A stretch of 41,130 bases of DNA from Candidatus Woesearchaeota archaeon (GTDB taxonomy: Archaea; Nanobdellota; Nanobdellia; Woesearchaeales; GW2011-AR9), in assembly GCA_013331555.1 (NCBI GenBank), contig DUGB01000001.1, forward strand, positions 4,611-45,740. The letters are read 5' to 3'. Within the stretch, counting starts at the first letter, position 1, and every line of letters begins with the position of its first letter. This document shows positions 2,763 through 31,876 of this stretch, piece after piece. Below the pieces are notes generated by a model. That model saw only the letters and a list, made by a program, of their open reading frames with translations, did no database searches and had not been told where the DNA came from. A program made the position numbers and the translations under genes.

Positions 2763-3170
2763 ATGACTGGAATAATTTGGCAACCAATCGCATTATACCA
2801 ACCAGGATTTAATTTTGATATCGTTTTGGATGATCGATTTGCCGAGGAAATGATTAAAACTAATTTGTCTCAAAGCGTTCAAGAAAGAATGAATGGTTTG
2901 GGAACTGACCTCACTACAAGATTGGGCCACTCTTGGCTAAGCCCTTTTACTTTTTATGAAAGTACTGCTTTTGTGAGTCAATTTTCTTTGGGTCAAAATG
3001 GTGTTTGGTTAGTTGTAGATAATTATTTTAAAAAAGAGCAATTAGAAGATAAAAAAGCCGTCAGATATACTACTCATAATGTGGATAATTCTTCACAGGC
3101 ATATGCTTTAATGGCTTTAGTTGATCTGTGGGTTAGCTATGCCGATACGTTGAAAAGTTTACAAGAATAA
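2763..3170 (+). CDS. Hypothetical protein
   Basis: 135-aa ORF 23 nt downstream of the ligase gene on the same strand. No recognisable motif. Confidence 0.5.
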   Translation: MTGIIWQPIALYQPGFNFDIVLDDRFAEEMIKTNLSQSVQERMNGLGTDLTTRLGHSWLSPFTFYESTAFVSQFSLGQNGVWLVVDNYFKKEQLEDKKAVRYTTHNVDNSSQAYALMALVDLWVSYADTLKSLQE

Positions 3171-3191
3171 AGAATTATGGAGCATAACCGT

Positions 3192-3674
3192 TTACATTCT
3201 CTGCAATTCTTTTACTTTCGCTAATACGTCCGCAGCGTGGTCTTTGACATTAACATCCCGCCAGATCCAAGCAATTTTGCCTTGCGGATTGAGAAGAAAC
3301 GTGGTGCGGAGAACACTGAGGTATTCTCGACCCATGAACTTTTTCTTGCCCCAGACGTTGTATTGTTCAAGAACAGTATGTTTTTCATCGCTTAAAAGAG
3401 TGATGTGATTCAATTTTTGTTTTTCAAAGAATTTACAATGGCTTTTCGGTGAATCTGGACTGATCCCAAAGACCGGAGCTTTTTGCTTGACGAATTCAGA
3501 ATATAATTTTGTGAAGTCTTGTGCTTCGATCGTACAACCAGGAGTATCATCTTTAGGGTAAAAGTAAAGCACAAGCCAGTTGCCTTGAAGAGCTTTTTCT
3601 AAAGAAATAGGATCATTATCCCTATTGGGAAGAGTAAAGAGTGGTGCTTTACTGCCAATGGTAAGTTCGGTCAT
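3192..3674 (-). CDS. bcp: Peroxiredoxin, Bcp-type thiol peroxidase
   Basis: Motif FYPKDDTPGCTIEA contains the peroxidatic Cys. The start was moved to the internal ATG at 3674 (MTELTIGSKAP...) because the 20 upstream codons of the tracked ORF look non-coding. Confidence 0.85.
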   Translation of the reverse strand: MTELTIGSKAPLFTLPNRDNDPISLEKALQGNWLVLYFYPKDDTPGCTIEAQDFTKLYSEFVKQKAPVFGISPDSPKSHCKFFEKQKLNHITLLSDEKHTVLEQYNVWGKKKFMGREYLSVLRTTFLLNPQGKIAWIWRDVNVKDHAADVLAKVKELQRM

Positions 3675-4162: not shown

Positions 4163-4723
4163 CTAGCGAACGAAAACAAAATACTTTTCTTTGCCTTCAA
4201 GTTCGGATAAAATTCTTTTGATGACGACTTGTTTAGGATTAGGTATCAATTTAACACGGTTACGGATGTCGTCAAAACTCTCGAATAATTTTACTTTTCG
4301 AGCTTCAATAACTTCCCACATATGTTTTTTACCAAAACCAGGCAAGAGCTCAAGCTGGTGCATGCGCATGCTTAAAGGCTGTGCTTTGTTGAAAAAATCC
4401 AAAAAGCGCGGTTCGTCTTGAGAGACAACCTCTTCAACAGCAGTTTCAAGAGTATTACGTCCGGTGGAGGTCAGTTTTTCTGTGCCAATGCGGCCTTTAA
4501 TATGATGAATTTCATCACGCTTGCCTTCACCAATATAGACACTTTGACCTGGCTGGAGGAAAATGCCTTTCTTAGGGATGAGTTCAAGAACGGTAAGATG
4601 TGTTGTGCCAAGAGCTTGGACAATCGGTGTTTTCATCGCCGCATCATCAAAAGGATACCCATGAGGGAGAAAATCTAGCACAATGGCGTTCTCTTCACGG
4701 ACAGTTTGTTGTGGCGGGATCAT
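4163..4723 (-). CDS. DUF655-family helix-hairpin-helix nucleic-acid-binding protein
   Basis: AIVLDFLPHGYP...FLDFFNKAQPLSMRMHQLELLPGFGKKHMWEVIEAR...FESFDDIRNRV matches the family as I recall it. It sits downstream of L21e and rpoF, the conserved archaeal gene order. The gene ends in TAG. Confidence 0.8.
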   Translation of the reverse strand: MIPPQQTVREENAIVLDFLPHGYPFDDAAMKTPIVQALGTTHLTVLELIPKKGIFLQPGQSVYIGEGKRDEIHHIKGRIGTEKLTSTGRNTLETAVEEVVSQDEPRFLDFFNKAQPLSMRMHQLELLPGFGKKHMWEVIEARKVKLFESFDDIRNRVKLIPNPKQVVIKRILSELEGKEKYFVFVR

Positions 4724-4776
4724 AGGGTTAGAATTCCGGCGGTGTTAATAAAAATTGCGTTTTGAAACACACCGCG

Positions 4777-5124
4777 TTAGGAGACGATTTCTTTCACCGT
4801 CGCGGCAATGCTCTCCTGGTCTTTTTTGGCCAGGCTCACATTGTACCCTTGGAAGATGATTTTAACATCGTTCGGGGTTTGGGGCAGAAAATCAAGAATT
4901 TTAGTAATATGTTCTTCTTTAAGACGAGTCACGTCGAGACCGGCAAGTTTTTTCAGAAGCTGTTCTTTTTTCTCGGATGAAAGAGGAGTGAATAAGTCAA
5001 CGTATTCTTTTACTTTCGTCGTGGTATGACCAAGCTGCTGGTCACGTTTTTCAATGTGCTTGATGATTTCGTGAACGTCAGATAAAGGTACTGGTTTTTG
5101 TTCTATGAATTTGGGGGAAACCAT
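4777..5124 (-). CDS. rpoF: DNA-directed RNA polymerase subunit Rpo4/F
   Basis: 115 aa, located 7 nt downstream of the L21e gene in the conserved L21e-RpoF-DUF655 arrangement. Sequence is helical and charged (VPLSDVHEIIKHIEKRD...). Confidence 0.75.
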   Translation of the reverse strand: MVSPKFIEQKPVPLSDVHEIIKHIEKRDQQLGHTTTKVKEYVDLFTPLSSEKKEQLLKKLAGLDVTRLKEEHITKILDFLPQTPNDVKIIFQGYNVSLAKKDQESIAATVKEIVS

Positions 5125-6173: not shown

Positions 6174-6200
6174 GAATAGTAAAAATAAGTTGTTAACACC

Positions 6201-7886
6201 ATGGAACAGGAATTTTATATCGAGATCATTGGATCATTGAAAGAGAAGCAGTATTCAGAACGGGAGTTGACAAAACTAAAGCGAGATTTAGCACTCAAAC
6301 ACAAACTAAAGAAAATTCCAACGAATATTGAAGTTCTCCTCCATGCCGATGTGAAAGATATTCCGGCTCTACGAAAAGTATTGCTGACAAAACCTGTTCG
6401 CACTATTTCAGGAGTGTCGCCTCTCGCCATCATGACCGCACCGCATCGCTGTCCGCATGGGAAATGTACGTTCTGTCCAGGAGGAATTGGCTCACCGTGG
6501 GGTGATGTTCCGCAATCATACACCGGCCATGAGCCGGCAACAATGCGCGCAATACGCAATAAATATGATCCTTATTTGATTGTCTTCAATCGCTTAGAAC
6601 AGTATGCCATTCTCGGACACAGCTTCGATAAAGTTGAATTTATTATTATGGGTGGAACGTTTCCTTCTATTCCGAAAGCCAATCAAGAAGAGGTGATTAA
6701 GGACGCCTACCGCGGGTTGAATGATTTTGCAGAACTCTTTTTTGACGCAGAAGGTGAATTTGATTTTTTGAAGTTTAAAGAATTCTTTGAACTGCCGGGA
6801 GATATTCATAACCTAACGAGAACAAATGCAGTGCAAGAAAAGATTTTGAAATACAAGCAAAAAAGAGAAACAACACTTGAAGAGGAACAACAACGGAATG
6901 AGACGGCAGAAATTCGTTGTGTGGCGTTGTGCATCGAAACAAAACCAGATTGGGGATTTCTTGACCATGGAAATGAAATGCTCCGCCAAGGCTGTACACG
7001 GGTTGAATTAGGAATTGAATCGGTGTATGATGATGTGTTAAAAATAGTTCATCGGGGACATACCGCCGCAGATTCAATAAAATCCATCCAAATTCTGCGT
7101 GATTTAGGTTTCAAAATTAATTTTCATTATATGCCGGGATTGCCGCTGACGGACAAAGAACGGGATGCGGCGGGAATGAAGCAATTGTTTACCGATCAAC
7201 ACTATCGACCGGATATGATCAAAATGTATCCGTGCATGGTTGGACCAGGAACGGCGTTGTATCAACAGTATAAATTAGGAAAATTTACGCCGTTAACGAC
7301 GGCACAAGCAGCAGATTTACTGGTGGAATGGAAAAAGGAAGTACCGGAGTATTGCCGGATTCAACGCATTCAACGAGACGTGCCGACGAAGTATTGGGAG
7401 GCGGGCGTTGATTTGACTAATCTACGACAGTACATGCTTGATCATTATGATGTCCGATGCCGTTGTATTCGTTGCCGTGAACCAAAAGGAAAAGTTGTAG
7501 ATTGGAATAATGTGAAAATTAAAGTAATGGAATATGAGGCATCAAATGGAAAAGAATTTTTTATTGCTGCGGAAGACATAACGAACGATATTTTGATTGG
7601 GTTTTGCCGCCTGCGATTTCCAGGACAGTATTTACGATCAGAGATAACACCAGCGAGTGCGCTAATTCGAGAATTACATGTGTATGGAACAGCAACAGCA
7701 ATCGGAGAAGATGGCGTTGTACAGCATCGCGGTTGGGGAAAGAAGCTGATGGAAAAAGCGGAGGAGATTGCTAAACACCATGGTAAAGAGAAAATGGTTG
7801 TGATTGCAGGTGTCGGTGTGCGGGAGTATTATCGATTGAAATTAGGGTATGAACGAGAATGGATGTATATGGTTAAGAAGTTGTAA
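6201..7886 (+). CDS. elp3: Elp3-type tRNA uridine(34) modification enzyme (radical SAM plus GNAT acetyltransferase)
   Basis: 561 aa. Radical-SAM Cys cluster CPHGKCTFCPGG. The C-terminal GNAT region is ...LIRELHVYG...QHRGWGKKLMEKAEEIA. Confidence 0.95.
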   Translation: MEQEFYIEIIGSLKEKQYSERELTKLKRDLALKHKLKKIPTNIEVLLHADVKDIPALRKVLLTKPVRTISGVSPLAIMTAPHRCPHGKCTFCPGGIGSPWGDVPQSYTGHEPATMRAIRNKYDPYLIVFNRLEQYAILGHSFDKVEFIIMGGTFPSIPKANQEEVIKDAYRGLNDFAELFFDAEGEFDFLKFKEFFELPGDIHNLTRTNAVQEKILKYKQKRETTLEEEQQRNETAEIRCVALCIETKPDWGFLDHGNEMLRQGCTRVELGIESVYDDVLKIVHRGHTAADSIKSIQILRDLGFKINFHYMPGLPLTDKERDAAGMKQLFTDQHYRPDMIKMYPCMVGPGTALYQQYKLGKFTPLTTAQAADLLVEWKKEVPEYCRIQRIQRDVPTKYWEAGVDLTNLRQYMLDHYDVRCRCIRCREPKGKVVDWNNVKIKVMEYEASNGKEFFIAAEDITNDILIGFCRLRFPGQYLRSEITPASALIRELHVYGTATAIGEDGVVQHRGWGKKLMEKAEEIAKHHGKEKMVVIAGVGVREYYRLKLGYEREWMYMVKKL

Positions 7887-14885: not shown

Positions 14886-15956
14886 TTAGACCAACTCAAT
14901 GCCCAATTCCCGGCTAAGGGATTGTGCTCGTCGTTCGGAACTCTTCTTGTCCACTTTGCCTAAAATCCATGGTGAATTGACACCAGTGATGATAGTCATG
15001 ACCGTCATTTTTCCTTTCATGTCATCAGCAACACGTGCTCCCCAAATAACGTTTGCATCGTCATCAAGAGATTCGGTAACCAATTCTCCAATTCGGGAAA
15101 CTTCATCAAGAGTCATGTCCGGTCCACCTGTTACGTGGATCAATGCGCCAGTAGCTCCTTCGTAGTTGATATCAAGCAAGGGATTAGATAAGGCTCCTTT
15201 AACTGCTTCTTCAACACGATTATTAGTATCGGAACTGCCTACACCAATCGCAGCGACACCACCATTGGACATAATTGCTTTTACGTCAGCGTAATCCAAG
15301 TTAACTAAGGATGGTACGGCAATCGTTTCAACAATTCCTTTAATCATTGTGGCGATCAATTCGTTGGCAACAGCAAAAGCTTGCTGAATAGGCAAGTTAC
15401 CTGCTATCTGAACAAGGCGATTGTTGTCAATAACAATAACTGTGTCAGACACTTGGCGAAGTTGCTGCAGACCAAATTCAGCTTTGTCGCAGCGGGCGCG
15501 TTCAATGCTGAACGGCATCGTCACTGTTCCAATAACAATTGCACCAGTATCTTTTGCGACTTGAGCAACAACAGGAGCAGCACCAGTACCAGTACCTCCT
15601 CCCATTCCTGCGCAGACAAAGACCATATCAGATCCTTTTAATGTTTCTTTAATGCGGGTTAATGATTCCTGAGCAGCTTCTGCTCCCTTATTGGGAAATC
15701 CGCCACATCCTAAACCACGTGTGCAGTCTTTTCCAATCAAGAATTTCTGATCGGCAGGAGTAATCGTTAAGTGCTGATGATCAGTATTGGTCGCGATAAT
15801 TTCTGCGCCTTTGATTCCTTTTTTGTAGAGCCAACCAACCATATTGTTTCCGGCTCCGCCAACACCAATTACTTTGATGTTCGCTTGATTCATATTCTCA
15901 AAATCATACTCGTCAGACGAGTTATTGTTCATTGCTTTTTCTATAATAAACTCCAT
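14886..15956 (-). CDS. ftsZ: Cell division GTPase FtsZ
   Basis: [10 protein letters not shown] and tubulin signature [17 protein letters not shown] gaggtg lies 8 nt upstream of the ATG. Confidence 0.95.
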
Positions 15957-19274: not shown

Positions 19275-20969
19275 TTACGCTTTCTGTTCGGCAGCAGCGC
19301 GATTTAATTCGCGGAAAGCGTTCTCGACATCGTCGTGGTTCCAGCCAGTATTTTGAGTAATTAATTGTTTAATCTCTTCATCCGTAGCGCCAACTTCTTT
19401 TTCTTTGCGAACCCATTGAACAAGATCATCAAAGTTATACGCCCGTGCTTGTGGTTTGATAGTATGGGCAACGACAAGAGCAACAATGATACTTAATAAC
19501 AAGACGCTGAATCCAGCAATAAAGTACACTTTGTAATTATTCCAAAGAGCGTCAAATGTGGATGCGGATTGTGGTTGTTGAACGATGGGAGGACGAGGCT
19601 GCCCTTGCAAAGGAGGAATTTGAGACGTGATGCGGACTGGTTCAGGACCTGGAACAACACTTGCTCCACAGGAATTGCTTATTACTGGTTTTCTGCCCGT
19701 AGTTCCACATTGATGCTCATCATAACATACTCTCGTTTCTTGACCGTTCTGGCAAGACTGCCAATCAGTGCAAATCCATGACTCCTGACACGGTTGACAG
19801 GTTCTGTTTTCTGTATACGTATTTGCGGTGTAAGGGCTTTTGCAGTTGTTCTGATCGGTACAACTGCGTTGCTGCTGAAGATTTTCATTACAGAATGTCC
19901 AGGAAGTACAGGTGATATTTGAGATACATCTCCATCCACTGCCACCACCGGAGCTTCCGGAACTACTAGAACCTGGGTCGAGAACTACTTGATCACATAC
20001 ATCGCCAAGGTTATCACCATCGGTGTTTTCTTGAAGAGGGTTAGGGACAGCAGGACAGTTATCTTGACCATCAGGAACACCGTCGCCATCCTGATCTTGA
20101 GCAGGAGGAAGATCACCGACACATTGACCTAGAACACATTCTTGGGTTGGTTGGCAAACATTATTACAAATACCACAATGAAATAAATCTGTTTGAAGAT
20201 CAAACTCCTCATCAATAGTGGTATCACAATCATTGTCTAGACCATCACACACTTCAAAACCTGGAGCAACGGCATTTTGACAATCTCCCCATGTTGCATC
20301 CTGCTGACAGACTTGCTGGCCTTCTTGGCATATTCCTTCATTAAAACCGCAGGCTTGTTGTTGACCAGAGGTACAAGGAAGAATTTCGATCGTAAACGTG
20401 TAATCCTCAGGAAAAAGATCATTACCTGTTTGAAGGTCATAGATAGAAGGGCGAATGAGAACATCAAATTCTTGGACAAGTAGAGCTTCAACGAAAGTTA
20501 GTTCGGCAATAGTGAACGTACCTGTTTTAAAATCTTGATCACTGAGAGTAGCATCGGCAATTGTAAGTACATTATTTTGACAAGAGATTTCTTCAAACTC
20601 GCCCCACAATTGGACTTGACGCTGAGCGGCACACAAATCAACTTGCGGATTTTGAGAGATTAATTCTATGTAAACACCATTCGTAGAAATACCCTGCTGA
20701 AGTGTTGCGGTCAGAACAAGTTTATTCCCTAACAAGCTAAGGTCAAATTCCTGACCGCTAGGAGCAGTATAAATTGCTTTTCCCACAAACTGTGAGACAA
20801 TAAACAAAAGAAGAGCAAGAACAACAACTAAGCCGAGAGAAATAAGAGTAATGATAAATGTTTTATTTGCTTCGCCGGCAGAATTATAAATTTTAGGGGG
20901 TGGGTGAGCGTGCGGTCTATAACGAACGTTTACATTCTTGTGATGTTGTTTTGCGCCACGACCATTCAT
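19275..20969 (-). CDS. Surface-operon protein G: bitopic Cys-rich protein (N-terminal anchor/signal, TSP type-3 repeat, W/C-rich repeats, C-terminal TM, cytoplasmic tail)
   Basis: TM 36-60 followed by FVGKAI. CDGLDNDCDTTIDEE (aa 241-255). DQDGDGVPDGQDNCPAVPNPLQENTDGDNLGDVCD (aa 291-326). Two CxSW/DWxxC...QxRxC units (aa 346-421). Second TM aa 481-504. Confidence 0.75.
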   Translation of the reverse strand: MNGRGAKQHHKNVNVRYRPHAHPPPKIYNSAGEANKTFIITLISLGLVVVLALLLFIVSQFVGKAIYTAPSGQEFDLSLLGNKLVLTATLQQGISTNGVYIELISQNPQVDLCAAQRQVQLWGEFEEISCQNNVLTIADATLSDQDFKTGTFTIAELTFVEALLVQEFDVLIRPSIYDLQTGNDLFPEDYTFTIEILPCTSGQQQACGFNEGICQEGQQVCQQDATWGDCQNAVAPGFEVCDGLDNDCDTTIDEEFDLQTDLFHCGICNNVCQPTQECVLGQCVGDLPPAQDQDGDGVPDGQDNCPAVPNPLQENTDGDNLGDVCDQVVLDPGSSSSGSSGGGSGWRCISNITCTSWTFCNENLQQQRSCTDQNNCKSPYTANTYTENRTCQPCQESWICTDWQSCQNGQETRVCYDEHQCGTTGRKPVISNSCGASVVPGPEPVRITSQIPPLQGQPRPPIVQQPQSASTFDALWNNYKVYFIAGFSVLLLSIIVALVVAHTIKPQARAYNFDDLVQWVRKEKEVGATDEEIKQLITQNTGWNHDDVENAFRELNRAAAEQKA

Positions 20970-20981
20970 TGATAAACCTCT

Positions 20982-21950
20982 TTATTGAGCTGATTCAAGG
21001 AAGAACTCCCGCAAGGCCCGACCGACTGCGGTAACAAGCTTGATTTTTGTGTCTCCATTAATTTTGTTATCTTGATACTGGATTAATGGCTGACCAGCTA
21101 GACAATATTCGGGAAATCCATGATCAGGACGATAACACAGGCCGTTAATAAGAGCAGTAACGCGATTAATTAAGATTTGTTTGGCGGGGAGTTTTGTACA
21201 GATACTACTTCGAGCACCGAAGTTAGTATTGGTGCAGGTGTAATCAATATCGACATATTTGCAATCTTCTGAACAGCCATCACGATTAGCACGATAGCCA
21301 TCGTCTTCAGTACTTCCATCTGCTGCACCAGTATCACACGCTTCATTTTGTTCGCCATCATCTTTAATGCCATTTTGATTTACATCGAGATACCCTACAA
21401 CACTATCACCGCAGATGGAAAGTTGGGGAACAACAGCGATACTCGGAACAGAAGCAACACCATCGATAGCAGATCCAGTCGCAGGAGTAAAGAAATTTTG
21501 GGGATCAGCTACGGCTACAAGATCAAATAGTACTCCTTGAACATCATTTTCGTTTATTCCTTGAAATTTTACATTATTAATGGTAAATAAAGATTGGGGA
21601 GCAACGCTACTCCATTCCTCTCCACTTCTTCCATGCCAACTTGTAAACAAACGGTAAGCCAGATTATTTTGGAAACGTCCAGTGAATTGATCGTTCTGAG
21701 TAAAGCGATCAGTTTTAGTATGACTTGCTTGACTAAAAAGAGGAAGTGCCGGGTTCGTGCTCATCGTTAAACTGTATTCAATCACTTTGACATCATGAGT
21801 GTTGACATTGACATTAACCGAAAAAGGAACGTCGTAGACGACTGGTTGAGGAACTGAGAAACCAACGTCAACATTCTCTGCAAACACAGAAGGCAAAGAC
21901 AGACAAAAAATACTGATTAATAGGAATAAGATTAAATGTTGTGTTTTCAT
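20982..21950 (-). CDS. Surface-operon protein F: secreted protein with Myxococcus-type cysteine-rich repeat
   Basis: The start was set at the ATG at 21950 (MKTQHLILFLLISIFCLSLPSVFA signal peptide), overlapping the stop of gene E (ATGA). Repeat: CGDSVVGYLDVNQNGIKDDGEQNEACD...DGCSEDC. Paralog of 23204-24133. Confidence 0.75.
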   Translation of the reverse strand: MKTQHLILFLLISIFCLSLPSVFAENVDVGFSVPQPVVYDVPFSVNVNVNTHDVKVIEYSLTMSTNPALPLFSQASHTKTDRFTQNDQFTGRFQNNLAYRLFTSWHGRSGEEWSSVAPQSLFTINNVKFQGINENDVQGVLFDLVAVADPQNFFTPATGSAIDGVASVPSIAVVPQLSICGDSVVGYLDVNQNGIKDDGEQNEACDTGAADGSTEDDGYRANRDGCSEDCKYVDIDYTCTNTNFGARSSICTKLPAKQILINRVTALINGLCYRPDHGFPEYCLAGQPLIQYQDNKINGDTKIKLVTAVGRALREFFLESAQ

Positions 21951-23182
21951 TGTGCTCCCTCCATTACGTAGGGACAATTTTCATGGTTAAATGTGTATGT
22001 CAACGTACCAAAGCCGTACAGTATATTCTCTCCCACAACCCGATAAGAAGAGTCGTCGCAAACATAAAATTTGTTGCTATTATAAGAGCAAGGAAGCTGG
22101 TTTGCTTCACCACACGTCACAGTGTTGATAGAATCACGTGTTTTGTAGACGATATCAGCGTCTTGTCCATCATACTTTTGATCTCCATTAAGATCAGCAT
22201 TGAATATTACACTACCTTGAGCATCACAAAGTCCAGGAATCACATTACACAACTGACGGCAGTCATCATTCCCTTGACAGAATTGAGTTACACCAGCGAT
22301 GTCAACTGGAGGACATTCCCCTCCATCATTAGGACATTCATCACGAGTGATAAATCCAAAATCCGTTTTACATTGCTCGGCAGTACATTGAACAGGTGGT
22401 TGTTGTTCTTGCTCGCAACCATCATTAAGATTATTGTTTGCATCTTTCCATTCCGCGTCACAAACACAAGCAAGATTAGTTAACAAGGCATGATCCCCAC
22501 ACGCTGTTTGATCGCAAACATCACCAAATGAATCTCCATCTTGATTAGCTTGATCCGGATTAGAAAGTACTTGACAATTATCAACAACATCAAATATACC
22601 ATCACTATCGACATCTTTTGCGGGTGCTCCACCGACAACAGAAAGAGCTATATCTTCAGGCAGAGCAGAGATGATATTTCTTTTATTAGAATATACGCTC
22701 ATGGCATCAAAATGAAAACTGACTTCCTCAACACTTGGAACTGTGAATTGAATCACAGCAAGTTCAACTCGACCAGGACCAGAAGGAGGAGTACTCGCAA
22801 GGTTTAGAATCCCCGCATCGAGCACCAACTTTGTATCCATACAATAGGTTCTTTGAATATCATACACGGGCGGAATAACAACATCAACGCTTGGTTCCCC
22901 ACCATGACACAGTTCTATTACTGGTGAAGATAATGCAACAAGAAAACTTTCTGCTCGTTCTCTTTCCTCCAAAAGAACAGTAATAGAAACTTTTCCAAGG
23001 GCATCAACTTTCAACTCTTGAGATGCGGAAATACCAGCAATGGCTTTACCAACAAATGGACGACCAAGAAATAGAGATAGTATTAATACCACCACCATTA
23101 CAAGAACTACTACACTAATAATAGCTACCTGGCGACGACGCTGTGGATCAACTGGAGCCGTTTCGAAACGTGTATTTACCAT
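21947..23182 (-). CDS. Surface-operon protein E: N-terminally anchored protein with TSP type-3 repeat and dockerin-like plus 4-Cys module
   Basis: TM 20-40 followed by FVGKAI. DVDSDGIFDVVDNCQVLSNPDQANQDGDSFGDVCD (aa 190-224). DLNGDQKYDGQDADIV...CGEANQLPCSYNSNKFYVCDDSSY (aa 329-380). Paralog of 24135-25133. Confidence 0.75.
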   Translation of the reverse strand: MVNTRFETAPVDPQRRRQVAIISVVVLVMVVVLILSLFLGRPFVGKAIAGISASQELKVDALGKVSITVLLEERERAESFLVALSSPVIELCHGGEPSVDVVIPPVYDIQRTYCMDTKLVLDAGILNLASTPPSGPGRVELAVIQFTVPSVEEVSFHFDAMSVYSNKRNIISALPEDIALSVVGGAPAKDVDSDGIFDVVDNCQVLSNPDQANQDGDSFGDVCDQTACGDHALLTNLACVCDAEWKDANNNLNDGCEQEQQPPVQCTAEQCKTDFGFITRDECPNDGGECPPVDIAGVTQFCQGNDDCRQLCNVIPGLCDAQGSVIFNADLNGDQKYDGQDADIVYKTRDSINTVTCGEANQLPCSYNSNKFYVCDDSSYRVVGENILYGFGTLTYTFNHENCPYVMEGAQ

Positions 23183-23203: not shown

Positions 23204-24133
23204 TTAATTTATTTCGTAATATTCGAGGAGTACTTCTCTCAACAATGGTACTTGCCGAGCAATGCTTTTTTCTGTGACGCAAAAACCACCATTTTCAAAA
23301 GTGATAGCGTCAGGATGCCCAACATAAGGAAAACAGGAAGGTTTTTGATCGCTAACATCAGCAGGAATGTTGAAAATAGCATTAAGCTTAGCAAGCAAAC
23401 GGTCTTGTGCTAACAGTGGTTGAAGAGTACAATCTCGTGAACCAAAATCACAAGCGAATTTAGAAGCTAAACTGGTTTGCCCTTGAATTTTATGAGTTGA
23501 TTTGATATAACGACAGTCAGCGGAACAACCATCTCCACCAAGAAGCGCAGGATCACAGGCTTCATTATTTTCAGATGATTGCTTAATCCCATCTTGGTTT
23601 GAATCAACATATCCAACAACCCCATCACCGCAGAGAGAAAGCTGAGGTATAACAACCGTGCTATCTTGACTTGTAATCGTAAAATCAACGCCAGATTGAG
23701 CAGCAGTCAACATCTTCTGGGGAACACTACGAAGAATGAATGTGAACCCACCATCTAAAGTCCCCGAAACACGAACGTTACTCAATGTTAAAAGATTACT
23801 AGGAGCAGCTGTTGCCAGAGTGTTTCCATTCGTTTCTGTCCTGACACGATAATACAAACCATTCTCTTGAGGACCTGAAAGACCTCCAACCAATTGAAAT
23901 TGATCGACCCGTTGAACTCCTGGCGAGAATAACGCTTTTCCGTTATTGGTACCAACAGAAAGGTCATAATCAATGAACGAAACACCATGTGAATTTACGT
24001 GTAGTTGCACGGGAAATGGTACATCGTACACAATTTTTTCAGGGATGGAAAACGTAAAGTCTGCGTCAGCAGCTATTGCTAGCGGAGCAAAAAATAATAA
24101 CAATAATGGTATGATTAAGAGTTTCTGGTTCAT
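23204..24133 (-). CDS. Surface-operon protein D: secreted protein with Myxococcus-type cysteine-rich repeat
   Basis: The start was set at the ATG at 24133 (MNQKLLIIPLLLLFFAPLAIA signal peptide). Repeat: CGDGVVGYVDSNQDGIKQSSENNEACDPALLGGDGCSADC. The N-domain FSIPEKIVYDVPFPVQLHVNSHGVSFIDYDL resembles gene F. Confidence 0.75.
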   Translation of the reverse strand: MNQKLLIIPLLLLFFAPLAIAADADFTFSIPEKIVYDVPFPVQLHVNSHGVSFIDYDLSVGTNNGKALFSPGVQRVDQFQLVGGLSGPQENGLYYRVRTETNGNTLATAAPSNLLTLSNVRVSGTLDGGFTFILRSVPQKMLTAAQSGVDFTITSQDSTVVIPQLSLCGDGVVGYVDSNQDGIKQSSENNEACDPALLGGDGCSADCRYIKSTHKIQGQTSLASKFACDFGSRDCTLQPLLAQDRLLAKLNAIFNIPADVSDQKPSCFPYVGHPDAITFENGGFCVTEKSIARQVPLLREVLLEYYEIN

Positions 24134-24134
24134 C

Positions 24135-25133
24135 TTACTGTCCTCCACCAATATATGCTGCGGTATCCTGATAAGGGCAGGAATGAGCACCATCAAAGAT
24201 ATATCCTTTGTAACCATCAACACGGAAAGAACTATCATCACAGGTTCTTGTACCTGCAAAATTACAAGGTGCTAAGTTAATATTACCACACTCTTCACGA
24301 ACTTTTGCTTCTGCTATTTTGAGGATGATAAACGCATCTTGACCATCAACTTTAGCATCACCATTGATATCAACAGTATACCCGAAACGACTTCCTACAT
24401 CAGTACAGAGCGCAGTTTTTTGAGGAACAGTTAACTTTTGATTAAGACCTGCCTGATCTAATGATCCTAGCCAGCTTTGACAAAGAGTTTCTTGATTTGT
24501 ATCAAACCAGGGCTGACAGGTAGCATCATTAGCCTGACAACTTACTTGCTCCGCAATAGGATTTTTAATGAACTGAATAAGATTAGCATGCGGAGGATTA
24601 AGATTAGGAATTGTAAAGACTACAAATTGAATCTGTCGTAGTTGATCTTCAGTAGGAATACTACCCCCTACTACTGTAAAAGGAATTGAAGCAATAGCAA
24701 TATCTGACCCAGTGATAATTCTGGCCGGGTCTAACGTCGCATGATGAAATAAAAGTTTATTACCACTGATCTCTCGACGAAGATAGGCGGTTTGATCGTC
24801 AGTAAACGGAAGCTGAAGTTGAATTTCACTTGGATTAACACTAAACGCAGAAGGAAATTCTAACTCAAAGTAAACCTCTGACGCTTGAGCAGTACCAAGA
24901 TGAGCAGCGACGGGAAAAAGAAACTGGCTTCCTTGCTGCAAATCAGAGAGTTGCCCACGAAATCCAGCAGTTCCAGAAACTCCTTGCTCTTGAGTAAAAA
25001 ATGCTTGCCCTGCGGAACGAAAACCAACAAAGTACACGATCACAATCAGAAGGACAACCAAAACAATGCCAACTAAGGCAATGACGGCAGGCCGTGCTTG
25101 GGCCTTCATTTTTTTAGGGAGTGCGGAAGCCAT
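24135..25133 (-). CDS. Surface-operon protein C: N-terminally anchored protein with dockerin-like plus 4-Cys module
   Basis: TM 16-37 followed by SAGQAF. DINGDAKVDGQDAFIILKIAEAKVREECGNINLAPCNFAGTRTCDDSSF (aa 255-303). Confidence 0.75.
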   Translation of the reverse strand: MASALPKKMKAQARPAVIALVGIVLVVLLIVIVYFVGFRSAGQAFFTQEQGVSGTAGFRGQLSDLQQGSQFLFPVAAHLGTAQASEVYFELEFPSAFSVNPSEIQLQLPFTDDQTAYLRREISGNKLLFHHATLDPARIITGSDIAIASIPFTVVGGSIPTEDQLRQIQFVVFTIPNLNPPHANLIQFIKNPIAEQVSCQANDATCQPWFDTNQETLCQSWLGSLDQAGLNQKLTVPQKTALCTDVGSRFGYTVDINGDAKVDGQDAFIILKIAEAKVREECGNINLAPCNFAGTRTCDDSSFRVDGYKGYIFDGAHSCPYQDTAAYIGGGQ

Positions 25134-25137
25134 GGGT

Positions 25138-26109
25138 TTATTGGACAGACCATAATGAACGGATAATTGACATTAAGCGTGTTAAAAATCCAACGGGAGG
25201 TGCTGATGAACTATCAATTGCACCCTGATTTTCTGCTACCGCAGCTTGAATCTGTTGGTTGAGCTGTTGTGATTTTGTTGGTGCGGCAGTTAGTTGACAG
25301 ACATTATTAACAAGTACTTCACCGTCTGGACAAGATTGTTGAGTAGTTTGACATGTATTGGCAACATTACATACTTGACCATCAGGACAACCAGTAGCAG
25401 GAACAACAGTATTTCCAGGACAAGCAACGCCACCGACACAAGCGGTGGCGGGAACAGAAGTACAAGGCACTTCGGTTGCTACACAAACATTATCAGTATT
25501 ACAACTCTGACCAGTAGGACAACCGATTGGAGCGACAACAGTATTCCCAGGACAAGCCACGCCACCGACACAAGCGGTAGCGAGAACAGAAATACAAGGA
25601 GCTTCAACTGTAACTGAAAGAGCGGTAGCAGATAATTGAAAGATAGGGGTTTTGTCTGTATCTCTCTGACTAAAGAGTCTATTAACAACGCTTCGAGAAG
25701 TATCTATCATAATACTATCAGACGTGGTTGCGACTCCTCTAAGAACAAAGACTTGTTTATCCGTTGTGCTTAGTTTAGGATCACTATCTGTTCCCGTAGG
25801 AATTTTAAAGTGCCAAACTGCACCATTCTCTTCGGCTTGATTTGGTAATGGAGTTCGAGAGGGGAACCAATGATCAGAACCAGTACGCTGACCATTACTA
25901 AAAACAACATTACCATTTTGACTTTTGACATAAAAATCAAAATTTTGAACACGTTGATTTTTTGAATCCAAAGAGATTGTCATCTCAAATAGAGTGTTAG
26001 CTTGAATTGAAGCTGAACCAGTAATTTTAACATCAACCGGATCAAGAGCGAGAGAAAATGTTGAAAGTAAAACGAGCAGAGACACAAAAATAAATAATAT
26101 CTTTTTCAT
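25138..26109 (-). CDS. Surface-operon protein B: secreted protein with two 44-aa Cys-rich tandem repeats
   Basis: Signal peptide MKKILFIFVSLLVLLSTFSLA. Strong SD aggagg upstream. Repeats PC(I/T)SV.ATACVGGVACPGNTVV...GCP.GQ.CN...C at aa 171-258, also visible as a DNA repeat of about 132 nt. Confidence 0.75.
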   Translation of the reverse strand: MKKILFIFVSLLVLLSTFSLALDPVDVKITGSASIQANTLFEMTISLDSKNQRVQNFDFYVKSQNGNVVFSNGQRTGSDHWFPSRTPLPNQAEENGAVWHFKIPTGTDSDPKLSTTDKQVFVLRGVATTSDSIMIDTSRSVVNRLFSQRDTDKTPIFQLSATALSVTVEAPCISVLATACVGGVACPGNTVVAPIGCPTGQSCNTDNVCVATEVPCTSVPATACVGGVACPGNTVVPATGCPDGQVCNVANTCQTTQQSCPDGEVLVNNVCQLTAAPTKSQQLNQQIQAAVAENQGAIDSSSAPPVGFLTRLMSIIRSLWSVQ

Positions 26110-26123
26110 CTTTTTTTTCCTCC

Positions 26124-28685
26124 TTAACAGGTAAAACTGTCGAAATCGTAGACACCACTATCGCAGGCATAGGTGTCTCCATAGGAACATGTTTGTTGGC
26201 CTGCTCCGCCACAATTAGAATTGCTTTGAGCCAAGATGGCATATTGTAAAGCCAGCACATCAGCATCAGTAACAACCCCATCATTATTAACATCTGCACT
26301 TGCGGGTAATGTTCCTTCACACATAAAGCTTTCGAAATCGTAGACACTATCATCACACGCGAATGTATCCCCATAAGAACAAGTTTCCTGACTGGCTCCG
26401 CCACAATTAGAATTGCCTTGAGCTAAGATTGCGTATTGTAAAGCTAGCACATCAGCATCACTTACAGAACTATCACTATTAATATCACCAGTTCCAGTTG
26501 ATGGCGCTGCACCTTCCCAGCTTCCCGCAGTACATTGATATTGAGCAGTATTATCTTGAGTTTGGTCAGCAGTACAACTTGGAGTTTGGGGATCTTTATT
26601 ACACTGCGTCGCAGAACAACAACGTTTTTGTCCATTTGTTCCCGGAATTGTATCTTTACAACTTAAACCAGTGCGACAGTCGCTGTCTTGTGTGCAAGTC
26701 CATGATTCTCTTGCTTTCCAAGATCCTGCTTCACACCAAAATTTCGCGTACAGAGGATCTGGCTGAGCTGGAAATATATTTGCTCCGCCATCTTGACAAT
26801 AAATTGTGGCATTGACATTATATTTTATACCAGAGCCAGTACATTCTTCAATAGGACAACAGCGTTTTGGATACGTTACAGGATCACTTCCTGGAATGTA
26901 GCTTTCACAAGCCAGATTATCAGTGTCGTCTTTACAATCAGATGTTTCTTGACATACGCCGCCTTTGCTCACTGTTCCTGTTCCTCTCTGTTCCCATTGA
27001 CCTTCACGACAGATGAAATTAGTAGTAAAAGTATAATCTCGATCACAATCTGAATTCTCTGAACCATCCCAATTACACAGAGCATTACTAGAGCAACACA
27101 ATTTTTGACCATTGGAATCTGGAGCAGGGTCTTTACACGTTAATCCGACACCACAATCTGCCGTAATATCACACTCTGAATTCAAAGGTTGTGGGTTTGA
27201 TGCCCATTGACCAGCTTGGCAGATGTACCGTTTATATTCAGGAGTATTAATAGATATGCCATCAGCAACACAGCCGACGACTTGAGCACTAGCTTCGTGA
27301 GCATTACATTCATTTGGGAGACAACACTTCAACGTGTTTGGTTCATTATCAGTATCGGTTGGTGGAACAGACTTACAGAATAAACCAAGGGCACAATTAG
27401 AATCTGTGGGAAAATCAGAATAACGTTCACATTGTCCCCCATTTTGTTGAACTGCTCCAACGATGGGTCGCCAGACACCAATTCTGTCAACAACACGACA
27501 AACTTTTGTTTGATCATCATTTTGTGTACCTGCTGCAACACACTTGCCTTCTGCAGAACCATCATTACACCAGTTTTCCGGACAGCACAAACTTGCATCA
27601 CTTTCATCAGAAACGTGGCAATAACCATTATAATCGTACTCTTCTCCATTAGGAAGTTGGAGTCTATCATCTGCACATTGGCCCGCAGCAGTGCAAGGCA
27701 GATTATAGCGAACAGAGACACAAGCGCTTTCTTCATCTACCTCACTATCACAATCATTATCTTGTTGGTCGCAAATTTCTGTGGAAGGTATGCACGCAGG
27801 AACGACCCATTCCCCTGATTGACAAATCCTGTTATTAAGATCATTAACAGTTCCTTCTGCAACACATTCATTACCGCCAGGACCATCATTACATTTGTTC
27901 GCAGGACAGCATAATTTTTGATCAGGCACTGTTTGGTCAATAGTATGATCATCAGTAGATTTACAGATCAAACCAGAACTGCAAAAACCAGTAGAAGTAC
28001 AAGCTTGATTTTCTTTAGGGCACGCGATATCCTCATCAACTTTTCCGTCGCAATCATTATCTCGTTGATCACAGATCTCAGTAGAAGGAGTACAGGAAGT
28101 CGCAGAAACACACATCTTTGTAGACGCACATGAAGTACCAGCGACACAATCGGCGCTCTTTACACACAACCCTTCATTAGCATTACATAATTCACCAGTA
28201 AGACCTTTTTTGAATGTACAATAACTGGTATAACCGTTACATTTTTCGACAACTTTAGTAAGTTGAGTTCGAGGGAAACATACTTTTTCAACACAGACAT
28301 TGCCAGCAGCAACACAAGCTGTTGGAAGTCCTTTACCTGGAGGGACACAAGAAAGAGTTAATCTAGCTTGAATGAGAGAGTTCATAGAGATTGGACATTC
28401 ATTGTTAACACAACGACCGACTTTTGTTTCACACACTAAACTTAAAAGAGAATTAGATTGAGTTGAACTAGTACAGACTTGCCCTGCAAAAGAACATTTC
28501 GCTGCCGTCGCTTGCCCGGCAAGCGTTTTTCCGGAAGAAGCAACATAGATGATGACTAAAACAAGAATAACAGCAAGACCAAGACCAATTCCCATCCAGA
28601 GTTTATGTTTGTCGAAGGAAGGTTTTGAAGACGAAGAAGAGAGGACATTCTGACGAGAAGACTGTTTAGAGGCTTTTTTTTTCAT
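26124..28685 (-). CDS. Surface-operon protein A: 853-aa N-terminally anchored Cys-rich protein (six Cys modules, two CDxxDNDCD motifs, two dockerin-like plus 4-Cys modules)
   Basis: TM 30-50 followed by TLAGQAT. ICDQRDNDCDGKVDEDIAC and ICDQQDNDCDSEVDEESAC. Six units ending (K/R/L)CC....C(N/T)...C...(I/V/W/Q)C..G.W. C-terminal DINSDSSVSDADVLALQYAIL and DVNNDGVVTDADVLALQYAIL. Confidence 0.8.
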   Translation of the reverse strand: MKKKASKQSSRQNVLSSSSSKPSFDKHKLWMGIGLGLAVILVLVIIYVASSGKTLAGQATAAKCSFAGQVCTSSTQSNSLLSLVCETKVGRCVNNECPISMNSLIQARLTLSCVPPGKGLPTACVAAGNVCVEKVCFPRTQLTKVVEKCNGYTSYCTFKKGLTGELCNANEGLCVKSADCVAGTSCASTKMCVSATSCTPSTEICDQRDNDCDGKVDEDIACPKENQACTSTGFCSSGLICKSTDDHTIDQTVPDQKLCCPANKCNDGPGGNECVAEGTVNDLNNRICQSGEWVVPACIPSTEICDQQDNDCDSEVDEESACVSVRYNLPCTAAGQCADDRLQLPNGEEYDYNGYCHVSDESDASLCCPENWCNDGSAEGKCVAAGTQNDDQTKVCRVVDRIGVWRPIVGAVQQNGGQCERYSDFPTDSNCALGLFCKSVPPTDTDNEPNTLKCCLPNECNAHEASAQVVGCVADGISINTPEYKRYICQAGQWASNPQPLNSECDITADCGVGLTCKDPAPDSNGQKLCCSSNALCNWDGSENSDCDRDYTFTTNFICREGQWEQRGTGTVSKGGVCQETSDCKDDTDNLACESYIPGSDPVTYPKRCCPIEECTGSGIKYNVNATIYCQDGGANIFPAQPDPLYAKFWCEAGSWKARESWTCTQDSDCRTGLSCKDTIPGTNGQKRCCSATQCNKDPQTPSCTADQTQDNTAQYQCTAGSWEGAAPSTGTGDINSDSSVSDADVLALQYAILAQGNSNCGGASQETCSYGDTFACDDSVYDFESFMCEGTLPASADVNNDGVVTDADVLALQYAILAQSNSNCGGAGQQTCSYGDTYACDSGVYDFDSFTC

Positions 28686-29116: not shown

Positions 29117-29521
29117 TTATTCGGATAGTGGAGTTGCTGCGTTAGAAACTGCACCTGCTCGATGGATGCGCGCAAAATAAGGAACAGCAACAACATAGTC
29201 TTCACCAAAGCCAGCAATATCTCCATCAATAGCCTCACATGTTTTACGAAGCTTAGAAACTGCACGCTTCAATTCGACAAGATCTTTATCTTTTAATGGT
29301 TTAATGTTAACGAGAGCAATGGTTGACCCTTCACGAAGGACATCAAGGATTTCTTTAATATCTTCAAATTCTTCAATGACAAAACGACGAACATTAACTT
29401 TTCCTTTATCATCACGCTCGCTGCCAGTTGAAACCTCAACGTAACTATTCATTGCCTCATCATCTTCTGGCTCTACGGGACGATTAAACCTTTCTTTTAT
29501 GCGCAACAAAAAATCTTTCAT
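29117..29521 (-). CDS. sepF: SepF (DUF552) cell-division protein, FtsZ anchor
   Basis: 134 aa, VNVRRFVIEEFEDIKEILDVLREGSTIALVNIKPLKDKDLVELKRAVSKLRKTCEAIDGDIAGFGEDYVVAVP. Confidence 0.8.
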   Translation of the reverse strand: MKDFLLRIKERFNRPVEPEDDEAMNSYVEVSTGSERDDKGKVNVRRFVIEEFEDIKEILDVLREGSTIALVNIKPLKDKDLVELKRAVSKLRKTCEAIDGDIAGFGEDYVVAVPYFARIHRAGAVSNAATPLSE

Positions 29522-31076: not shown

Positions 31077-31787
31077 GGAGGTTATTTTATTTTTTCCTTG
31101 TATTTAAAGCCTTCGTTTTCGGAAAGAATGAAATGAGCCACTGGACAAGCTTGGGTGAAGCTTATAAAGCAAATGTTCTTTCAAATGGATATGGAGAAGG
31201 AGAGAGCATTGGCTGTATTTCAAGATAAAAGAATAAGAAGAGTTTGGCATAACAACGAATGGTATTTCTCTGTGGTGGATGTAGTTGAAGCACTAACTGA
31301 TAGCCCTGCTCCAAGACAATACTGGGGCGTTTTAAAAGGAAGAGAAAAACAGTTGTTAACACTTTGTTTACAACTGAAATTGCTTTCGGCTGATGGCAAG
31401 AACTATGCCACAGATTGTGCTAATACGAAGAATATATTCAGAATTATTCAGTCCATTCCTTCTCCTAAAGCAGAACCATTTAAACAATGGCTGGCTCAAG
31501 TGGGTTATGAGAGAATTCAAGAAATTGAAAATCCAGAACTTGCCCAAAATCGGGTCAAAGAATATTATGAACTAAAAGGTTATCCGAAAGATTGGATAGA
31601 TAAAAGATTAAGGGGAGTCGTAATTAGGCAAGAGCTTACAGACGAATGGAGAGATCGGGGAGTTGTCGATGAAACAGATTTTGCTATTCTGACTAATGAA
31701 ATCACCAAAGCAACATTTGGAAAAACAGTTGGAGAATACCGAGAATTCAAAAGATTAACAAAGCCTAGCCAGAATCTGAGAGACCAT

Positions 31788-31846
31788 ATCCTGAGAAATT
31801 CAGGGAATTTCTGGGATGCCAAAAATCACAGAGGTGATTTTTCAGC
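31788..31846 (+). repeat. 59-nt double-hairpin insertion 1
   Basis: Hairpins agaaattc-agg-gaatttct (31794-31812) and aaaaatcac-agag-gtgattttt (31821-31842). The ends are also mutually complementary (ctgagaaatt / gatttttcag). Boundary ambiguity is 2 nt (AT). Confidence 0.7.
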
Positions 31847-31876
31847 ATGACTGATTGGGAACTTATTTTTACTATG

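Follow-up and report, generated by a model that had tools for sequence, protein, structure and literature searches.

A 41,130-nucleotide stretch of the Candidatus Woesearchaeota archaeon contig DUGB01000001.1 (assembly GCA_013331555.1, positions 4,611 to 45,740 of the forward strand; hereafter, the window) carries a cluster of seven genes, A to G, in which the proteins A, C and E end with a small module composed of a dockerin-like Ca loop and a segment with four cysteines (C1 to C4). The module proves to be a genuine, conserved domain of about 57-90 amino acids (aa) at the extracellular C-terminus of its carriers, present in four copies in the window and recovered in proteins outside it. We lean slightly towards the reading that the module is a Ca-dependent dockerin variant which docks its carriers on cohesin-like domains encoded in the same operon, as part of a surface complex of DPANN archaea.

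The module in the window and in other proteins

Translation of gene A (26124-28685, minus strand) bore out the preliminary description of this DNA in that the protein ends with two near-identical units, which are 64 aa each and 71-75% identical at the protein level. A direct-repeat search found the corresponding repeat in the DNA (26121-26312 and 26313-26504, 78% nucleotide identity); the duplication described before is thus present, with an exact period of 192 nt in place of about 190 nt. Tandem Repeats Finder did not report this 192-nt repeat. A hidden Markov model (HMM) of the four copies gave exactly four matches in the six-frame translation of the window (domain E values 1e-25 to 1e-38), including the single copies previously placed in C and in E, and no fifth copy was found in this search, where everything else scored no better than E = 0.03. 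The four copies are as follows.

A module copy 1, 26316-26507, minus strand: about residues 727-790; Ca loop DINSDSSVSDAD, a helix, then CGG..Q.TC / ACDD / FMC.
A module copy 2, 26127-26315, minus strand: about residues 791-853; C4 is the final residue of the protein.
C module, 24138-24392, minus strand: about residues 248-332; C-type, in which the stretch between C3 and C4 is long and ends in CPY; the copy modelled with AlphaFold2 (AF2).
E module, 21950-22216, minus strand: about residues 323-411; E-type, ADLNGD.KYDGQDADIV...YVCDDSSYRVVG...CPYVME.

The columns D.N.D...D, CG, C, CD and C are invariant in the four copies. The length of the full unit differs through the variable stretch between C3 and C4, and the figure of about 55 aa first given for the module fits the short A-type unit only, the full unit being 57-88 aa. 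The conserved cysteines of the motif first given for the segment stand, while the residues following C3 are better written as C(D/E)(D/N)G.(F/Y) than as CD(D/S)S.(Y/F).

An exhaustive profile search of 1.84 billion representative proteins with a cut-off of E <= 1e-3 generated 141 matches. About 45 of these contained the whole module (one or two stretches spanning profile positions 1 to about 70), with E values down to 1e-32, and the rest were ordinary multi-loop dockerin or EF repeat proteins aligned at positions 3-25 only. The pattern CG..C..C..C was found in 63 instances in 50 proteins, the window proteins counted; beyond the window, the full module occurred about 60 times, in about 46 proteins. 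The Cys spacing, for which conservation outside the window had been named as a check, is kept in the homologs: C1 and C2 are spaced by 8 in 57 of the 63 instances and C2 and C3 by 8 (36 instances) or 10 (18 instances), that is, by one of the two values in 54 of 63, with the C3-C4 spacing varying from 12 to 42. Named cluster members of the family are annotated as 'hypothetical protein' and come from metagenome-assembled genomes (MAGs) of Woesearchaeota and Nanoarchaeota. Thus, of the archaeal and candidate phyla radiation (CPR) protein sets in which the module had been suggested to be sought, DPANN archaea contain it, and the exhaustive search gave no evidence of it in CPR bacteria; the module family appears to be DPANN-archaeal (Woesearchaeota/Nanoarchaeota).

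An alignment of 58 module instances from about 46 proteins, termed A4, showed D19 (loop position 12), C35, G36, C43, C51 and C72 to be invariant and D8 to be conserved in more than 90%. The positions expected to hold the Ca ligands (1, 3, 5, 9 and 12 of the loop) are occupied by D, N, S or T in 55-58 of the 58 instances, with D at position 1 in 53, N/D/S/T at position 3 in 55, D at position 5 in 52, D/N/S/T at position 9 in 57 and D at position 12 in all 58. Outside the loop, A29 (50/58), Q40 (42/58), P42 (32/58), D/E52 (52/58) and G54 (44/58) are also conserved.

Word-indexed homology searches retrieved far less. The four-copy alignment matched only a near-identical fragment of E (P0001), full-length E gave matches to its TSP_3 region only, and the 58-instance alignment found nothing; such a search is evidently unsuited to so short and diverse a module. 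A search for related loci with the C-type sub-alignment yielded only one genome locus and two metagenome loci, and in the literature no description was found of the module or of cohesin-dockerin systems in Woesearchaeota or other DPANN archaea.

The module was close to the C-terminus in each of the 46 proteins examined, with 0-19 residues after it. The N-terminal parts of the carriers are unrelated to each other and include a cohesin-like domain (C-type family), an NHL propeller (P0007), a beta-helix/NosD domain (P0040), a Laminin_G_3 domain (P0086) and Cys-rich repeats (A, P0057 and P0098). Carriers of the cargo type mostly have two units and those of the cohesin type have one. In 10 of 12 tandem carriers, the units are closer to each other (67-91%) than to the unit of any other protein (38-61%); the repeats of canonical dockerins are likewise kept alike inside one dockerin.

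An N-terminal signature composed of a K/R-rich tail, a hydrophobic helix and G-[KQRH]-[AG]-[IVF] is shared by 35 of 44 full-length carriers. The tail and helix imply that the C-terminal part of the carriers is exported and therefore extracellular. The signature is located at 28500-28685 in A, 24990-25133 in C, 23030-23182 in E and 20790-20969 in G, and is also found in P0005-P0130. It looks like a lineage-specific signal-peptide or anchor motif (e.g. FVGKAI), in which G (-3) and A (-1) may form a signal peptidase I site, and is absent from Pfam and NCBIfam descriptions.

Relation to dockerins and predicted fold

The module was compared with dockerin type I (Dockerin_1, PF00404; gathering threshold 22.9 bits), whose architecture consists of two tandem segments of about 22 residues, each a Ca loop with its helix, connected by a short linker within a domain of about 60-70 aa. 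On A, each unit aligned to profile positions 2-23 of 57 only, and the sum of the two was 30.7 bits; on E, only positions 29-53 aligned (12.2 bits, E = 0.22), and C generated no match to this profile. Among the 58 single units, 26 matched Dockerin_1 weakly (best E = 5.7e-5) and none attained the gathering score. A sequence search of PDB matched module positions 3-25 alone, each time to a single dockerin repeat. In the PDB dockerins so matched, the two loops begin about 31-33 residues apart inside one dockerin, whereas the loops of A are 64 residues apart with four cysteines between them, and C and E have one loop each. The module thus has an EF-hand-like Ca loop of the dockerin type (ligand positions 1, 3, 5, 9 and 12) that leads into a helix and has none ahead of it, and lacks the two-segment architecture.

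The Cys part of the module was not covered by any Pfam, NCBIfam or PDB sequence entry searched, and 'variant or new module', as it had been called, is a fair description for this reason. Membership in the fungal-dockerin (CBM10), epidermal growth factor (EGF)-like and canonical EF-hand families was rejected, there being no supporting profile match: the fungal dockerin profile CBM_10 (PF02013) matched none of the 58 instances at E <= 1, and the EF-hand models (PF00036, PF13202 and PF13405) matched 2 of 58, weakly. A canonical EF-hand is a helix-loop-helix that mostly occurs in pairs, and the AF2 model shows no helix entering the loop. No likeness of the module to a carbohydrate-binding module (CBM) or sorting-signal family was found in Pfam, NCBIfam or PDB.

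AF2 with alignment A4 gave a confident single-domain model of the C module (mean predicted local distance difference test score (pLDDT) 92, predicted template modelling score (pTM) 0.79), the structure of the isolated module having been proposed as a check. The model contains an unstructured lead-in and the loop, with no helix before it, a helix (17-30), a hairpin (43-45/48-50) flanked by C2 and C3, a strand (56-58) and a short C-terminal helix. A single unit is therefore predicted by the model to fold on its own, in the 'F-hand' arrangement of dockerins. Foldseek against PDB found nothing at E <= 0.001 with this model, the best match being a Ruminococcus flavefaciens dockerin (9gvb; 28 columns, local, root-mean-square deviation 1.8 Å, E = 3.2), and Foldseek against BFVD gave no significant whole-domain match. 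A hint on disulfide pairing comes from the homologue of A at locus L002 (4957-6333), the end module of which is degenerate: it has lost the Ca loop, C1 and C2 together and keeps C3, C4 and CDDGQY. This single case may point to C1-C2 and C3-C4 pairs.

These results bear on the possibility that the four copies are common dockerins with two loops, misread by eye, or that the likeness among them is a matter of chance or of Cys-rich composition. The score of A, which exceeds the Dockerin_1 gathering threshold, speaks for an ordinary dockerin, but it sums two half-length matches; the single loops of C and E and the loop distance in A are also at odds with that architecture, and chance similarity is hard to reconcile with four cysteines and a Gly after C1 that are invariant at fixed spacing through the 58 instances and with the E values of the profile search. 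As a lone unit also folds confidently in AF2, this reading was excluded as extremely improbable. Neither of the two outcomes named beforehand as refuting the description, plain two-loop dockerins on a profile search or a Cys pattern confined to the window, was observed.

We class the module as a novel dockerin variant rather than as a PF00404 member, since the two-repeat architecture is missing and an invariant four-Cys segment is added. It resembles the type I dockerins of bacteria and archaea (e.g. Clostridium thermocellum CelS, 1daq/2mte; R. flavefaciens, 9gvb) in that a 12-residue Ca loop of dockerin consensus runs directly into an amphipathic helix, in that it closes modular extracellular proteins of varied cargo, with cohesin-like domains alongside, and in the near identity of paired units within a protein. 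It differs in having one loop-helix per folding unit rather than two, with a beta-hairpin segment (about 35-65 aa, four invariant cysteines) in place of the second repeat, and in that the loops of tandem carriers are 64-75 aa apart, compared with about 33, with a single unit enough in C- and E-type proteins. To our knowledge, all structurally known bacterial dockerins have two Ca-loop/helix repeats, and canonical dockerins lack disulfides. The dockerin of anaerobic fungi (CBM10-type, PF02013) is small, Cys-rich, beta-containing and disulfide-stabilised, and is often placed in C-terminal tandem on secreted proteins; we know of no fungal dockerin with an EF-type Ca loop and helix. The module is like it in its small, Cys-rich, C-terminal tandem format, with no sequence relation.

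Non-cellulosomal archaeal proteins with cohesin and dockerin domains include those of the Archaeoglobus fulgidus AF2375 type. Archaeal cohesin/dockerin proteins are also known in anaerobic methanotrophic archaea (ANME; PMC9012536). The DPANN proteins share with both groups the combination of a cohesin and a dockerin-type module in one polypeptide of an archaeal surface protein, the absence of a link to cellulose, and a proposed role in extracellular assemblies or cell-cell contact. The A. fulgidus and ANME dockerins are, as described, canonical, with two repeats recognised by Pfam, whereas the DPANN module has one loop and four cysteines and, unlike them, belongs to a conserved seven-gene operon.

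Two further proteins, P0105, which is bacterial (MCC2098737.1, from a Hyphomicrobiales MAG), and P0066, have 4-8 tandem copies of the Cys segment alone, with the motif CG..[NG]Q..C-x8-9-C[DN].GL...C. Aligned with the Cys part of the module in hhalign, they gave a probability of 89% (E = 2e-6) over 23 columns, a short likeness subject to selection bias, since both proteins were found with the module profile itself. The motif in common is CG-x3-Q-x-(P)-C-x8-9-C-(D/N)-x-G ... C, with the same C1-C2 spacing; P0105 and P0066 differ from the module in having no Ca loop or helix and in that the copies are internal rather than C-terminal, and they are unannotated. From these sequences, the Cys segment may be an independent mini-domain.

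The gene cluster and possible partners of the module

Genes A to G are tightly packed on the minus strand, with intergenic gaps of about 21 nt or less and one 4-nt overlap.

Gene A, 26124-28685, minus strand: 853 aa; K/R-rich N-terminal tail, hydrophobic helix and AGQA motif; a body of about six Cys-rich repeats, with two motifs of the MopE type; ends with the two modules and lacks a cohesin-like domain.
Gene B, 25138-26109, minus strand: 323 aa; signal peptide, beta-rich domain, Cys-rich stretch and C-terminal amphipathic helix.
Gene C, 24135-25133, minus strand: 332 aa; a cohesin-like domain (nt about 24576-24971, about residues 55-186), preceded by an N-terminal signal or anchor and joined by a linker to the module.
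Gene D, 23204-24133, minus strand: 309 aa as called on the public contig; same class as B and F.
Gene E, 21947-23182, minus strand: 411 aa; an FVGKAI-containing signal or anchor and a cohesin-like domain (about residues 50-171), together with a TSP_3 Ca repeat, a Cys-rich linker and the module.
Gene F, 20982-21950, minus strand: 322 aa; same class as B and D.
Gene G, 19275-20969, minus strand: 564 aa; a signal or anchor with FVGKAI, a cohesin-like domain, motifs of the MopE and TSP_3 types and a Cys-rich domain; a C-terminal transmembrane helix with a conserved cytoplasmic tail; no module.

The proteins C, E and G appear to carry cohesin-like domains, as judged from the PDB matches of the C family and the homology of E and G to it. 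All 13 PDB matches of the C-family profile were cohesins or dockerins (E = 0.003-0.8), the cohesins being those of NagJ (2jh2/2o4e) and of scaffoldins (3l8q, 2y3n, 1tyj and 4uyp), and the N-domains of E and G aligned with that of the C family in hhalign with a probability of 99% (E = 5e-18, 154 columns). Two C-type homologues, P0005 and P0006, scored 24.6 and 25.4 bits with Pfam Cohesin (PF00963), above its gathering score of 24.1 bits. At locus L002, a 535-aa protein (1083-2690) has a clear Cohesin domain (40.8 bits) followed by a PEBP/PBP domain (PF01161), and a G-like protein of locus L007 (1476-3374) also has a PEBP/PBP domain, with E values of 1e-24 to 1e-26 across the two loci; the surface system therefore carries variable functional inserts.

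The gene order of the window is repeated on contig Ga0209515_10010408 (L006) as A(893)-B(280)-C(353)-D(313)-E(412)-F(325). L002 contains A-like, B-like and C-like genes together with further cohesin-bearing proteins and a G-like protein, and L007 has C-D-G. Orthologous modules are 41-62% identical, and paralogous modules in one genome 21-37%. Judging from these identities, the three module subtypes are kept distinct, as would be expected if each had a specific partner of its own.

B, D and F are paralogues, each with a signal peptide, a beta-rich domain at the N-terminus, a Cys repeat of acidic character (CGDGVVGY..EACD..DGC..DC.Y) and, at the C-terminus, a conserved amphipathic helix (..L..L.EFF). 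Their homologues are located at 4299-5096, 6183-7124 and 8375-9310 of L006, 448-1464 of L007 and 6345-7313 of L002. They generated no match to a Pfam family, and the idea that their N-domains are divergent cohesins was not supported by hhalign (probabilities 2.6% and 21%).

In the docking mechanism towards which we lean, the first approximately 25 residues of the module would form one dockerin-type F-hand, that is, a 12-residue Ca loop (D-x-N-x-D-G-x-I/V-D/N-x-x-D) leading into an amphipathic helix, and this single Ca-stabilised loop-helix would supply the binding surface. The four-Cys beta-hairpin segment, presumably closed by two disulfides, would take the place of the second dockerin repeat as a support and pack on the helix, by which a single repeat would become a self-sufficient fold. 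The module could then plug its carrier into the cohesin-like domains of C, E and G. Since the two modules of A come without a cohesin-like domain, C and E contain one domain of either kind, and G combines a cohesin-like domain with a C-terminal membrane anchor and has no module, a chain or network from the membrane outwards is possible, e.g. G <- E <- C <- A. G would be the membrane-anchored base of such an assembly and the chain would display the large, Cys-rich A on the surface of Woesearchaeota-type DPANN cells, with NHL-propeller, beta-helix or Laminin_G cargo displayed by other family members. A more specific version can be put forward only tentatively: the seven genes may encode a self-assembling hierarchical mini-scaffoldin, peculiar to DPANN archaea of the Woesearchaeota type, with three cognate pairs of cohesin-like domain and mono-dockerin, tethered to the membrane as G <- E <- C <- A, in which the Cys-rich A of 853 aa forms the tip and attaches to a host cell or mineral and the module is a new minimal dockerin fold that binds through a single helix and lacks the dual binding mode.

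Several points weigh against docking on the cohesin-like domains. The C, E and G proteins of the window itself gave no Pfam Cohesin match at E <= 1, and their assignment as cohesin-like comes through homologues and profile comparison. Members of the module family are few and come only from uncultured organisms. Small domains are a weak point of Foldseek, which makes the lack of a fold match soft evidence; for the tandem of A, the AF2 model (12 sequences, pLDDT 57.5) is uninformative on whether the units pack like a classical dockerin. Furthermore, in the gene order every module protein is followed by a B/D/F protein, an arrangement at least as suggestive of a partner in that class. The modules might dock on the B/D/F proteins encoded directly downstream, forming the cognate heterodimers A-B, C-D and E-F. 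The alternation A-B-C-D-E-F is strict in the window and in L006, and persists as A-B-C in L002 and C-D-G in L007; module proteins and B/D/F proteins number three each, the short gaps and the overlap suggest co-translation, and the features of B/D/F are kept across loci. This alternative leaves the cohesin-like domains of C and E unexplained, however, and B/D/F show no detectable tie to cohesins or known dockerin receptors in the hhalign and Pfam comparisons above, so that we consider it rather unlikely.

It was also considered whether the module is an adhesin tip, binding glycans or the S-layer of a host in a Ca-dependent manner, or an element at the C-terminus that serves sorting or stability. 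DPANN archaea are generally regarded as episymbionts, and small disulfide-rich Ca modules often bind glycans. The extreme C-terminal position, the adhesin-like carriers with Cys-rich repeats, TSP_3, Laminin_G and NHL domains, and the existence of proteins with the Cys segment only (the bacterial P0105, and P0066) are consistent with such a role. On the other hand, the presence of the module and of cohesin-like domains on proteins of one operon is the hallmark of cohesin-dockerin systems, the three subtypes remain distinct across species, more in keeping with cognate protein partners than with an external ligand shared by all, and the module resembles none of the CBM or sorting-signal families in the databases searched. 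An adhesin tip or sorting element therefore seems quite unlikely, and docking on the cohesin-like domains of C, E and G remains the reading to which we incline.

Cohesin-dockerin pairing is the textbook case of modular extracellular assembly and a workhorse of synthetic biology. If the favoured reading is true, a self-folding, one-repeat, disulfide-braced dockerin would represent the minimal unit of the cohesin-dockerin interaction, and could provide synthetic biology with a smaller connector, possibly with a single binding mode. The module and its operon are a variation on a known theme, with a putative function. For the question of how ultra-small DPANN archaea attach to their hosts, a conserved, completely unannotated seven-gene surface operon offers a testable assembly logic. 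The domain family is missing from Pfam and NCBIfam, and defining the module would improve the annotation of 'hypothetical' DPANN surface proteins.

Origin of the window and minor observations

The gene content of the window is archaeal, including ELP3, an archaeal-type prolyl-tRNA synthetase (ProRS), FtsZ with SepF, and an archaeosine/queuine tRNA-guanine transglycosylase (TGT), and its GC content is about 0.40. The window FtsZ falls in a 90%-identity cluster, the named members of which are from Candidatus Woesearchaeota and Nanoarchaeota MAGs, and the organism is therefore placed among the DPANN archaea. A stretch identical to the window is contained in a groundwater metagenome contig of 42,959 bp (ENA ERZ978281; SRR1658344, PRJNA268031). 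No tRNA or Rfam features were found in the window.

The body of A (26510-28500) consists of about six repeats of about 90 aa with the pattern C..DC..GL.CK....G.K.CC....C.......C.......C..G.W, in addition to the two MopE-type motifs. This Cys-rich repeat is unannotated and is also present in P0057, P0098 and a 458-aa protein of L002. The cytoplasmic tail of G, about 50 aa following the C-terminal transmembrane helix (19275-19560), is conserved in L007 (about 3000-3374), with the pattern YNF[DN][DE]L..W..KE..G...[ED]IK..[IL]....GW...D[IV]EN[AS]F.EL common to both. The tail may provide a link to the cell interior; SepF (29117-29521) and FtsZ (14886-15956) are encoded nearby, possibly by coincidence.

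An open reading frame on the plus strand (31155-31850) carries a Bro-N domain (PF02498) in the annotation of the public contig, and was placed via a 225-aa gene at 3284-3961 of L003. The Bro-N domain is typical of viral or mobile-element proteins.

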